A stretch of 64,000 nucleotides of DNA. It comes from Candidatus Eiseniibacteriota bacterium (lineage in GTDB: Bacteria; Arandabacterota; Arandabacteria; Arandabacterales; Arandabacteraceae). Position numbers: made by a program. Below are positions 21,001-24,000 of the stretch, one piece after another. The DNA is taken from positions 18,800 to 82,799 of the forward strand of contig JBDRNT010000091.1 in the NCBI GenBank assembly GCA_043810925.1, given 5' to 3'. Every line of letters begins with the position of its first letter. Positions within the stretch are counted from its first letter, which is position 1.

Positions 21001-24000
21001 TTGATCAGGATCTCATCTCCCGGAGCGTGTGACCGGCCGAGCCGCGCCTCGGAAGAAAGGTAAAGCAGGGTCTCGTGCACTATCGGTAGAAACTGTGAGG
21101 CCAGCACCAGGTCGTTCCATTCCATGTCGGCCGAGCTGGCAAACAACATCACCCTGTCATTGACCTCAATCATGGCCGGTGATCCATCCGAGAACGATGC
21201 AATCACGCGTCCGCCGGAGGGATTCACCTTCATGAACTGGTAGAATCTCGCGTCTGAAAACGGGCTCTCATCGCTCTTGAACTTGGCAAAAACGGCGTGT
21301 CCCCGCTCAAACCTGTCAACTGTGTAGAACCCGGACCGCCCTGCCTCAGACAGCCCTTCAAGCGTGACCCGCCCCAGACGCGGCAAGAGATTCCGGTTAT
21401 AAACACCGGTATCAACCATGTTGCCCATGAAAATCAGGAGACTGCCCCCGCCCGCCAGATAGTCCGATATCGCTTCAATCTCAAGCGGGGAGAATCTCGC
21501 AACGTTTGCGACAATCAATACGTCCACCCTGGACAGGCCCTCCCGGCTTATTGCCCCCTCCTCGATTTCAAGCGGCTCAAAACTGCCTCCCCCCTCCGGG
21601 TTAAGAGCAGTACGCACATAGGGTGCATCCCCCACTATGCCGACCACCCGTCTGCGCGATGGGAGCGCGAAGTAACGCGTATCATCGATCTCGAGCTTAT
21701 CCGTGGCCATTCTGACCTCGCCCCAGAGGAAGCTCTCCCGTGCAGGTACTCTGAACGTCTCACTCTCACGACCGAACTCACCGGGTGAGAAGACTGTGCG
21801 GTCGAGAAACTCACCCATCAGGAATAGCTCCGCCACCCTGCCCTGCATGTCGTCCGCATTGAACCGCTCAAGCGCGACCTCCATCTCCATGTCTTCACTT
21901 CCCGCAGGGATTCTGAAGGAGATGTCCTTAACACATGCGTTGGCATCCTGCTCTCCGAGATCGACCAACATCACCTTGCCCCCCGCTTCGATTTCATCCA
22001 GCGGCTCCTCAAGTGTGTCCCAGCCCCGCTTTTGCATATCCGAGATGATGTAGATCTCCCTGTTCGGATTGGCCGACTCTTTGAGGATTGAAACTGCGTG
22101 CTTTAAGGGTGTGGCAATGTCGGTGACCAGGTTGGTGGCGAAGATCTTCTCTACGCGCCCACGCACTCTCTCTGCGTCTCTCGTTCCGCTCTCGACGAGG
22201 TTCCTTGACGGCGACGACCCGGTAAGCACATAGACCTCATCCGACCGGTCGAAGTACTCAAGCAATCCGAGCGTCTTCTCTTTCGCCAGGTCAAAGAGAC
22301 GACCGCCGTCCGCACGCCTCTGCATGCTGAAACTGTCATCGAGTATTATCACGGCAGTAGTCGGAAGGTGCCCCTTGACCGCCCTTCCGCCGGTGATGGT
22401 CGGGTGGGCGAGCGCAAGCGCTATGAAGAGCAGGAGTAACACCCTTATGATAAGGAGCAGGATCTGTTTGAGATGAAATCTCCTGGTTTTCCTCCGCATC
22501 ATCTTCCGGAGGAACTCGAGTGAAGGAAAGACCTGGATCTTCGCCCTCTGCCTGTGGAGAAGATGAATTATCAGCGGCACGAGCGCCGCAAGAGCCGCAA
22601 GGAGATACAATGGATTGAGAAAGTTCATCGCCTGCCACCTATGTCGGCCTTCCAGGGAAAATGGCCAAATGGGATGACTATACAGCCTCAAACTAACAAC
22701 GACCCGCGCCCCAGTCAAAGATAATTCGGTGACAGTTTACTAATTATCCCGGTGGACACCCGGGTACTTCGGTGACAGTTCACAAATTATCGGGGCACTC
22801 CGGCAGAATCATCATCCAGAAGGGGCCCCAGTCTCCTGCGAGCTACTTTCCTCTTCAGCTTACACCCTGGTATCCCGATATAGATAAGGGAGGTTGTTCG
22901 GCAATGCACTTCTTTATCGCAATGCACTTCTTTATCGGGCCCCATCCCGGGGCATATCATTCGACCGTTGTAAGCACATGAACAAACTGGCAAGTGGTTT
23001 CCGTGAGGAAAGGAGATGCCAATGAGGTCGATTTGCTGTTGTCTCGTGTTTTTCACAGTGGTGCTTGCACTCGCCGCGCATAGCCCGGCCGGTGAGCGTC
23101 ACGGGCCGAACCAGGCGCTTGGTGAGGATCTGCTACGGCAGGTCTGGAGAGACATTAAGAACCGCGATATGGCCGCACTGGATACCAGGATGTCCAGAGG
23201 GTTCCAGTCGGTCCATGGATTCGGTGCAAGTGATCGCACGCGTGAGATGGAGCTGATAGCAGGCCTGGATATCAATCAGTTCTCACTGAGCGATATTGAG
23301 ATAACCAGAAACGGGCCGGTTATCACAGCCACCTATTTCGTTTCCGTCGAGGAGACCATAGACGGCGAACGGCTGTCAAAGGAGCCTGCCCCGAGACTTA
23401 CGGTGTTCCTGGAGACCGCCGAGGGGTGGAAGTGGATCGCCCATGCGAATCTCAAGCCCATGGAACAAACGGCGAAGTAGCCCCGGAAATCGAAACCCAA
23501 CCGGTGCCGAGATGACCGTTGGGCAGGGCCGGGTATCCAGCGAATTCAGGAGACGCACAGCCGGGAGGACGTCATGACGGATCTGAGGCGAATCATCGCG
23601 TGGTACTACTTGCTCGCAGCACTTATGGTCGGTGCGCTCGGCCTCGTGGCCGCGACCCCGGCGCTGACAGGGGATCAAGATCATGCCGGAGAAGGCCGGT
23701 ACGCTGATTTCGGTGAGGTCCGGGCCGGTTTCCTTAAAGCCTACGAGGCCGGGGATTACGCCAGGGCACTTGAGATTGCCGATCGGATCAATGAGATTGT
23801 AGAGTCCGGACATATCGAGGCGCTGTACGACATGGCCTGCCTGTACAGTCTTCAGGGCGAGAACGAGAAGGCCTACTTCGCACTTGAAAGAGCCGTAGGT
23901 GCGGGCTTCCACGATGCAAAGCATCTGCTGAAGGACACCGATCTTGAGAGTGTCTGCAAAGAGGCTTGGTTCAAGTCAATAGTCGACGAGGCACAGTTCA

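Follow-up and report, generated by a model that had tools for sequence, protein, structure and literature searches.

The Bat (Bacteroides aerotolerance) and MoxR-DUF58-VWA operons combine genes for a MoxR AAA+ ATPase, a DUF58 protein and a BatA/VWA membrane protein, and these genes form one operon in relatives of the bacterium considered here. In a 64,000-nucleotide stretch of contig JBDRNT010000091.1 of a Candidatus Eiseniibacteriota bacterium (GCA_043810925.1; hereafter the window), the system departs from the described operons in three respects: it consists of two transcription units, as in the rest of the window's clade, a single 684-aa BatA-VWA protein takes the place of the products of batA-E, and a BsuPI-domain gene stands first in the relatives. 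Each of the two halves is preceded by a copy of the same sequence block and by units containing GACAGTT, which the original prediction interpreted as a shared promoter with an operator array co-regulating the halves. The other described system of relevance is that of the repetitive extragenic palindromic (REP) sequences: a REPIN consists of two inverted REPs and a spacer, is non-autonomous, and is mobilised by a REP-associated tyrosine transposase (RAYT), usually present in a single copy (PMC3337134, PMC3116915, PMC5581495). With high probability the window combines two things unrelated to each other, the duplicated promoter and leader of a split MoxR-DUF58-BatA operon and neighbouring repeats of the REP/REPIN type.

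Pfam finds all three components of the system in the window, and they are contiguous in five relatives. The batA-like gene (20574..22628, minus strand) encodes a BatA N-terminal domain at residues 1-76 (BatA, E = 3.2e-15) followed by VWA_2 (E = 4.5e-10), and on the gene map mfd (17198-20638, minus strand) comes next to it. The second half comprises moxR (29734-30771, minus strand; AAA_3, E = 1.9e-63, bpMoxR) and, after it, the DUF58 gene (28845-29741, minus strand; DUF58, E = 3.5e-51). These domains agree with the genes originally placed at starts 22628 (batA-like) and 30771 (moxR). The halves are 8.2 kb apart, and the plus-strand genes between them encode a DUF4440 protein, a methyltransferase and a ZIP transporter; because these three convergent genes intervene, co-transcription of batA with moxR is impossible.

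Without gaps, positions 22667-22713 (site 1) and 30846-30892 (site 2) are 85% identical over 47 nt, and in a gapped comparison the likeness covers about 130 nt, with the first GACAGTT unit at one end and the leader at the other. A near-identical block is therefore present upstream of both Bat genes, as originally described, and it is resembled by no other intergenic region of the window: the 17-mer CTCAAACTAACAACGAC, common to both sites, occurs in the 64 kb, at up to three mismatches, only at 22687-22703 and 30866-30882 (0.04 occurrences expected from shuffles). Read on the minus strand, the batA copy (22690..22718) has the -35 hexamer TTGACT (22718-22713), a 17-nt spacer and an extended -10, TGT+TAGTTT (22698-22690; TAGTTT at 22695-22690). 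The moxR copy (30869..30898, also minus strand) has TTGACA (30898-30893), an 18-nt spacer and the same TGT+TAGTTT (30877-30869; TAGTTT at 30874-30869).

Ten copies of the block from eight genomes were aligned: the batA and moxR copies of the window, two copies from relative L002, and one each from L210, L001, L003, L004, L211 and L212. The BatA proteins of these relatives are 91% (L001), 90% (L210), 77% (L002), 70% (L003), 63% (L004), 62% (L211) and 58% (L212) identical to that of the window; a further relative, P0006 (68%), contributes a gene map only and is not in the alignment. TTGAC and TGTTAGTTT are invariant across orthologous and paralogous copies, with a spacer of 17-18 nt; the BatA proteins of the aligned genomes are merely 58-91% identical, yet the promoter hexamers do not vary. 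The block also keeps a fixed position, immediately ahead of the first gene. TGTTAGTTTG was seen in the first four related loci upstream of Bat genes only, and a looser promoter pattern, applied to seven related loci and the window with a spacer setting that passed over the 17-nt-spacer copies, gave Bat-upstream matches only.

The shared block can be considered a putative sigma-70-type promoter with an extended -10, together with a 5' leader; its hexamers lie at a spacing of 16-18 nt upstream of a first gene and are conserved in orthologues. The string TTGAC(T/A)-17/18 nt-TAGTTT, earlier called a plausible promoter, gains in standing from the invariance of TTGAC and TGTTAGTTT in the ten aligned copies. 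In sigma-70 promoters T1, A2 and T6 of the -10 are the conserved positions, and a TG extension and a perfect -35 compensate a weak -10. The block resembles extended -10 sigma-70 (sigma-A) promoters in the -35 TTGACA, the 17-18-nt spacer, the TGn, and T1/A2/T6 in TAGTTT; it differs from them in that the -10 has 3/6 of TATAAT, a consensus which may not be that of Eisenbacteria. TAGTTTG also partly resembles TAnnTTTG, the -7 motif of Bacteroidetes-type -33/-7 promoters, a likeness mentioned as a remark only. In L002 an operon encoding an extracytoplasmic function (ECF) sigma factor, a zf-HC2 anti-sigma factor and DUF4097 (860-3655 and 3796-3960) is divergent from the moxR promoter copy; no such genes lie near either window promoter. 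The divergent sigma gene prompted the consideration of an ECF-sigma promoter, which was rejected: the GAC-CGT spacing is 13 nt, not 16-17, and TTGACA with the extended -10 is the better fit.

The origin of the two copies can be read from the relatives. In five of five relatives with 58-70% BatA identity (P0006, L003, L004, L211 and L212) the genes are contiguous as BsuPI-moxR-DUF58-batA, followed by mfd, and these unsplit operons have a single block, upstream of BsuPI. The split operon with a block before batA is found only in the close clade, at BatA identities of at least 77% (the window, L001, L210 and L002). In L002, besides the window, the block is also present before moxR. No BsuPI homologue was found in the window or in the fetched sequence of L001, L002 and L210. 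The part of the original prediction that concerned a shared promoter of separated Bat/MoxR halves stands on the invariant hexamers and the undivided, single-copy operon of the distant relatives; the operator array, discussed below, does not.

In the unsplit operons the DUF58 stop codon and the batA start are separated by a 10-nt spacer, as TAG-GTGACGGGCC-GTG in L212 and TAG-ATAGCGGGCG-ATG in L211. At the batA copy of the window the leader runs to the old BsuPI ATG position and then continues as TAG-GTGGCAGGCG-ATG (22641-22626), with the batA ATG at 22628. This relic (22629..22641, minus strand), the DUF58 stop codon TAG with the 10-nt spacer GTGGCAGGCG that once stood between DUF58 and batA, is fused to the leader and matches the L212 and L211 junctions; it therefore indicates that everything from the BsuPI start through the last DUF58 codon was removed from the batA copy. 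At the moxR copy of L002, DUF58 is followed by this same spacer element, as TAG-CTGACAGGCG, and batA is missing there. The batA-copy leader itself, GTCATCCC..GGCC..TTCCCTGGAAGG..GACA (22642..22689, minus strand), stops at the former BsuPI ATG position and aligns with the leaders before the BsuPI start codon in L003, L004 and L211; it is 93.6% identical to its orthologue in L210 and 87.2% to that in L001. The moxR-copy leader (30772..30868, minus strand) has kept the ancestral ATG (30819-30817), which opens a 9-codon open reading frame (ORF) ending at TAA 30792-30790. This ORF (30819-30790) ahead of moxR appears to be a remnant from the loss of BsuPI.

The moxR copies of the window and L002 have GGGGCTTGAG and GCCGATTTCCCTG in common, and the batA copies share GGCC..CATAGGT; since orthologous promoter copies group together, the duplication is apparently older than the divergence of the clade genomes. 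These comparisons point to duplication of the operon followed by complementary gene losses as the simplest reading. The block, about 53 nt but really about 90 nt when followed to the start codon, would have served an ancestral BsuPI-moxR-DUF58-batA operon in the Candidatus Eisenbacteria lineage as housekeeping-type promoter and leader, with -35 TTGACA, a 17-18-nt spacer and the extended -10 TGnTAGTTT. The operon region would have been duplicated in the ancestor of the window's clade, and complementary genes then lost from each copy: one copy would have kept moxR-DUF58, and the other batA(-mfd) without the segment from the BsuPI start codon through the last DUF58 codon, the deletion placing the DUF58 stop codon, and with it the 10-nt spacer and batA, directly behind promoter and leader. 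Each half, now parted from the other by unrelated genes, would be under its own paralogue of one promoter, and this should couple the expression of MoxR-DUF58 and BatA; co-regulation in this manner is plausible. The locus resembles described cases of duplication-degeneration-complementation in having two paralogous promoter-leader copies over complementary gene subsets, with deletion scars in both. It differs in that the history is deduced here from six to eight metagenomic contigs, with no intermediate full duplicate among them, and in that extra inversions or insertions are needed.

The latter are seen at a gene for a large BNR_4/FlgD_ig (Por_Secre_tail) protein, a conserved divergent neighbour in unsplit relatives, which lies upstream of the operon promoter in L003 (2-2791) and L212 (4330-7173). 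In L002 (6138-8969) the gene is located between DUF58 and batA in the other orientation, and an inversion or translocation therefore went along with the splitting of the operon.

A cis-regulatory RNA downstream of the -10 (a riboswitch, thermosensor or attenuator) could also be the reason for the conservation of the block, and would be compatible with the promoter-duplication reading. Most leader copies have the form GT..CATACC..GG(G)CC..TTCCCCTGGAAGG-N5-ATG, ending in the unsplit relatives at the BsuPI start codon, and the conserved motifs CATACC, GG(G)CC and TTCCCCTGGAAGG speak for such an element, as does a GGCC/GGCC stem that could enclose the Shine-Dalgarno sequence. However, the predicted stem is weak, with only 4 pairs, -3.4 kcal/mol and one compensatory change; the L002 batA copy lacks 11 nt of the leader stretch, and the invariant columns are the promoter hexamers themselves. 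In Rfam no known RNA family reached the gathering score in the window, and at E <= 1 both sites gave only noise and the related loci generic miRNA-hairpin matches. An RNA of this kind is unlikely.

The GACAGTT units next to the duplicated promoters have a different character. Exact copies of GGTGACAGTT number four in the 64 kb (22728+, 22771+, 30924+ and 30956-), all inside the two sites, and at one mismatch there are nine matches against 3.1 expected, a number attained by none of 100 shuffles. At site 1 the unit W1, GATAATTCGGTGACAGTTTACTAATTATC (22720..22748, plus strand), which matches the core of the unit, has its coding-strand end 1 nt upstream of the batA -35; W2, ACTTCGGTGACAGTTCACAAATTATC (22766..22791, plus strand), follows in direct orientation. 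Between them a short GC hairpin, CCCGG(22748-22752)-N7-CCGGG(22760-22764), is read from the sequence (22748..22764). The two direct copies around CCCGG-N7-CCGGG are thus present as first reported; the entire array folds weakly (z = -1.9). At site 2 the units form a REPIN-like inverted doublet (30919..30970), absent from the original prediction, of W3 (30919-30941, plus) and W4 (30948-30970, minus), with arms of 23 nt each that are 87% complementary and 6 nt apart; folded as single-stranded DNA it gives -18.1 kcal/mol (z = -6.9). A degenerate GACAGTT-like stretch, GGTATGACAGTTACAA (30901..30916, plus strand), lies between the doublet and the moxR-copy -35, and includes a fifth, degenerate unit copy, TGACAGTT, at 30905; compared with the ancestral CCTTGATACAGTTTGACA of L001, L002 and L211, the stretch looks like a small insertion and not a full unit. 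Farther upstream of batA, between its promoter with the REP array and the divergent DUF4440 gene, an 18-nt unit, GCAATGCACTTCTTTATC, is repeated twice in tandem (22903-22940).

Since the similarity of the two sites spans unit and block, the whole module of about 130 nt might be viewed as one mobile or dispersed element, such as a miniature inverted-repeat transposable element, lying upstream of both genes by chance. This is extremely improbable: the block occupies the orthologous position in the REP-free relatives L003, L004, L211 and L212 and was seen before Bat genes only, it is missing from REP loci elsewhere, and the composite was not encountered at several unrelated loci. Dispersal over unrelated loci, which the original prediction had named as an observation that would count against it, is found for the GACAGTT unit but not for the 53-bp block, which is confined to Bat upstream regions.

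The units and the promoters also differ in their persistence among close relatives. Units resembling AATTCGGTGACAGTTTAC at up to four mismatches number four in the window, four in L002 and one, decayed, in L210; there are none in L001, L003, L004, L211 and L212. At the batA promoter two units are present in the window, an intact one in L002, a decayed one in L210 (TAATTTGTAAGCTGGTACCGAATTATC, which looks like a W2/W1 hybrid) and none in L001, whose sequence upstream of the batA -35, CCTTGATACAGTTTGACA, equals the REP-free state of the L002 moxR copy and L211. Between the window and L210 or L001 the promoter and leader together are 93.6% and 87.2% identical, against 63.6% and 18% for the 45-60 nt upstream. 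The junction of unit and -35 takes three different forms at the window batA, window moxR and L002 batA promoters, which makes more than one insertion or rearrangement of the units probable.

The unit consists of a core, GGTGACAGTTTAC, between AATT flanks, and its 23-nt form, AATTCGGTGACAGTTTACnAATT (as a 23-mer, AATTYGGTGACAGTTTRNNAATT), is almost invariant. In L002, the relative with 77% BatA identity, three more units (two direct, one inverted) occur at an unrelated locus between a radical-SAM gene and the end of the DUF4097/anti-sigma/ECF-sigma operon, neighbours without a link to Bat; the counts are thus 4-5 units at two loci in the 64 kb of the window and four at two loci in 17 kb of L002, beside the decayed one in L210. 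An exact 15-mer scan of species-representative genomes gave mostly chance matches, and the true family was told by inverted pairs, AATTCGGTGACAGTTTAC...GTAAACTGTCACCGAATT, which among the matches listed were found in Caulobacter, Rhodospirillales, Rhizobiaceae, Nitratireductor and a gammaproteobacterial metagenome-assembled genome (MAG). At one of these genomic loci, L037, the copies lie just downstream of ordinary metabolic genes; an IS21 element considered there was rejected, as the flanked 555-aa and 257-aa ORFs are an FAD oxidase and an aldolase. In metagenome contigs a pattern with 21 specified positions was matched at 86 loci. Of these, 80 were analysed, and they contained 55 exact inverted pairs, 53-90 nt overall with variable, mostly GC-rich spacers, and in at least a dozen further loci the partner unit was off by one or two bases. 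More than 40 of the metagenome loci come from sample Ga0172380, with up to four on one 174-kb contig, and the host contigs range from 33 to 72% GC. Most units are intergenic, by a crude ORF call tail-to-tail in 19 cases, tandem in 26 and head-to-head in 11.

Short-spacer doublets like that of site 2 are present at L126, L135, L159 and L199, and doublets fold well elsewhere, too (z = -8.7 at L160, -12.7 at L126). In single units, whose flanks are short (AATTCG...CGAATT or GATAATT...AATTATC), folding is no stronger than in shuffled sequence (z = -0.9 and +0.9). The inverted doublet with a hairpin that characterises REPINs is thus seen in the window at 30919-30970, site 1 with its direct copies being the exception. 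Compared with plasmids, the site-2 palindrome gave matches at chance level only; in the searchable literature the core string of the unit occurred in primers only, and the unit was matched to no described REP. In many of the REPINs (L165, L180, L186, L153, L178, L191, L199, L142, L156, L189, L179 and L060) the outer ends are stuttered, with partial copies in the form TTCGGTGG|AATTCGGTG... or ...CACCGAATT|CACCGAAT, which points to slippage or to termini that were cut and joined repeatedly.

An all-against-all ORF comparison over the unit loci revealed one recurrent protein family directly adjoining the units, a Y1 transposase of 220-235 aa, complete at L127, L154, L158 and L201; L137 has a partial homologue and one unit. 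Units are present on both sides of the gene in L154, L158 and L127, and upstream only in L201; the 23-mer 22723-22745 inside W1 is identical to the units flanking the gene in L158. The proteins match Pfam Y1_Tnp (E = 5e-12 to 2e-8) and PDB 4er8, the E. coli TnpA_REP (E = 5e-5), score 72-79.5 bits with NCBIfam NF047646 (REP-associated tyrosine transposase) against 17.5 bits with the IS200 model, and have kept the HUH (MPNHVHL) and tyrosine (RYVxLNPVRA, RYxxLNP) motifs. The family is large, with at least 8,000 matches at E <= 1e-20. Its top named members are from Sphingomonadales and Caulobacterales and are annotated by NCBI merely as "transposase"; among the top 120 protein matches there was none from Eisenbacteria, and the names there were alphaproteobacterial only. 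All loci considered, the RAYT gene was seen at L127, L137, L154, L158 and L201, and the unit in genomes (L025-L093) and metagenomes (L124-L209).

The GACAGTT units are most likely REP sequences; those of site 1 would be singlets and those of site 2 a REPIN-type inverted doublet. Their family is tied, in other genomes, to a RAYT, an IS200-like Y1 transposase, and its members act there as mobile intergenic elements with a fast turnover; the window's genome presumably has a RAYT of its own and many more units. E. coli REP/BIME (bacterial interspersed mosaic elements) and P. fluorescens REPINs (PMC3116915, PMC3337134, PMC5581495, PMC3479197) provide the closest parallel. The units agree with these in being extragenic, about 23-29 nt long and, in other genomes, multicopy, in forming mostly inverted doublets with a variable spacer and long hairpins, in flanking a single-gene Y1/HUH transposase, and in their fast presence/absence turnover in close relatives. 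They differ in a sequence that matches no described REP and is only weakly palindromic as a single unit, in a RAYT of about 225 aa with a C-terminal extension, scoring just under the NCBIfam cut-off and lacking from the window's 64 kb, and in their occurrence in Alphaproteobacteria, Gammaproteobacteria, low-GC contigs and Eisenbacteria. For REPIN-RAYT systems inheritance is described as mainly vertical (bioRxiv 10.1101/2022.05.22.493013; PMC5581495). The 23-nt unit and RAYT together extend over Alphaproteobacteria (Caulobacter, Rhodospirillales, Rhizobiaceae and, by protein names, Sphingomonadales), the gammaproteobacterial MAG, contigs of 33-44% GC and the Eisenbacteria clade, and this spread over at least three phyla or classes appears to be unusually wide for a REPIN-RAYT system.

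With these data the operator array of the original prediction can be judged. According to that model the units are operators of a dedicated transcription factor co-regulating both Bat/MoxR halves, and indeed a unit adjoins the -35 at three promoters, the two in the window and that of batA in L002, and some copies are direct and others inverted, as is often the case in operator arrays. The model is nevertheless very improbable. The unit occurs at unrelated loci of the same lineage and at many intergenic sites in other phyla, and it flanks RAYT genes; in the relatives with 90-91% BatA identity the batA promoter lacks it or has a decayed form, it is absent from the L002 moxR promoter and from all unsplit relatives, and no regulator gene adjoins either site in the window according to gene calls and Pfam. 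Operators would be expected at orthologous promoters and before a coherent set of genes; L001, L210 and the moxR copy of L002 have no unit or only a decayed one, and elsewhere the units have unrelated neighbours. As Bat-specific operators the units are unlikely; they are presumably neutral or merely incidental at the Bat promoters, and any effect on the promoter would be incidental or secondarily acquired.

Such a secondary role, in which the REP units were co-opted as an A/T-rich UP-like element, a nucleoid-protein site or a hairpin insulating moxR from PD40 read-through, has a somewhat better chance but is still rather doubtful. The units lie beside the same -35 via three different junctions, and the strongly folding site-2 doublet lies between the moxR promoter and a co-directional upstream PD40-repeat gene (31060-32067, minus strand, on the gene map); moreover, REPs are reported (PMC3479197) to recruit integration host factor and to affect mRNA turnover. 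On the other hand, the hairpin has no T-run and no terminator was called there, and the REP has been lost or has decayed in close relatives whose promoter stays intact. It is improbable, too, that one RAYT-REP family moved across distant phyla, landed repeatedly beside Bat -35s in Eisenbacteria and was co-opted as a shared cis-regulatory module; if this were true, a host protein might bind the unit, or its role might be that of an UP element or insulator, and the originally predicted operator would be a domesticated REP.

Several observations weigh against the favoured interpretation, a duplicated promoter with neighbouring REP/REPIN repeats. A simple promoter scanner called neither site, because TAGTTT matches TATAAT at 3/6 positions; promoter function, and with it the expected start of transcription at both promoters, is deduced from consensus and phylogenetic footprinting. 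A simple tandem duplication alone does not explain the orientation of the BNR_4 gene in L002. As to the repeats, single units are barely palindromic and the site-1 copies are direct, not inverted. The RAYT scores fall just under the NF047646 equivalog cut-off of 80 bits, and with tblastn neither the 64 kb of the window nor some 120 kb of relatives (L001-L004) gave a RAYT gene; the flanking of a RAYT by units, and thus the association, is established in other genomes only, not in the window's own. Finally, at both promoters in the window and at that of batA in L002, units lie right next to the -35 on its upstream side. This looks non-random; it could be due to a target preference, to gene conversion acting on the paralogous promoters, or to selection.

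Two further features of the window may be mentioned. Directly 3' of moxR-DUF58, at 25358-28975 (minus strand), there are four genes for a DsrC-like protein, an unknown ORF, a CCG/4Fe-4S protein (HdrD/DsrK-like) and a class-V aminotransferase (cysteine desulfurase-like). L001 has this cassette of four genes too, with no moxR-DUF58 ahead of it; in the window the cassette may by now share a transcript with moxR. Repeats of about 70 nt and 78-85% identity form a second intergenic pair, at 39542-39609 (plus) and 52069-52136 (minus), which constitutes the longest inverted repeat in the window. Its core reads CTGGCAC(A/G)CCTCTCG...TTTGCTCA..AAAG.CATTCGCTTGCGGC, with a sigma-54-like start, TGGCAC-N5-TCGC, and no Rfam family matched the pair at the gathering score.

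The most unusual aspect lies outside the original claim: it is the presence of one REP unit and its RAYT in very different lineages, which may be of interest to researchers of REPIN-RAYT systems. No new question on Bat function is raised by any of these findings. Motif-based regulon prediction calls for caution, because REP/REPIN elements adjacent to promoters mimic operator arrays. The promoter itself is of an ordinary extended -10 type, and operons are known to split by duplication and complementary loss, an event that is unusually clear here. For the Bat/MoxR systems of Eisenbacteria, whose annotation may benefit, the locus would provide a sequence-level example of an operon split without uncoupling its genes, and an illustration of operon evolution in which promoter and leader are doubled and the deletion scars are still legible.

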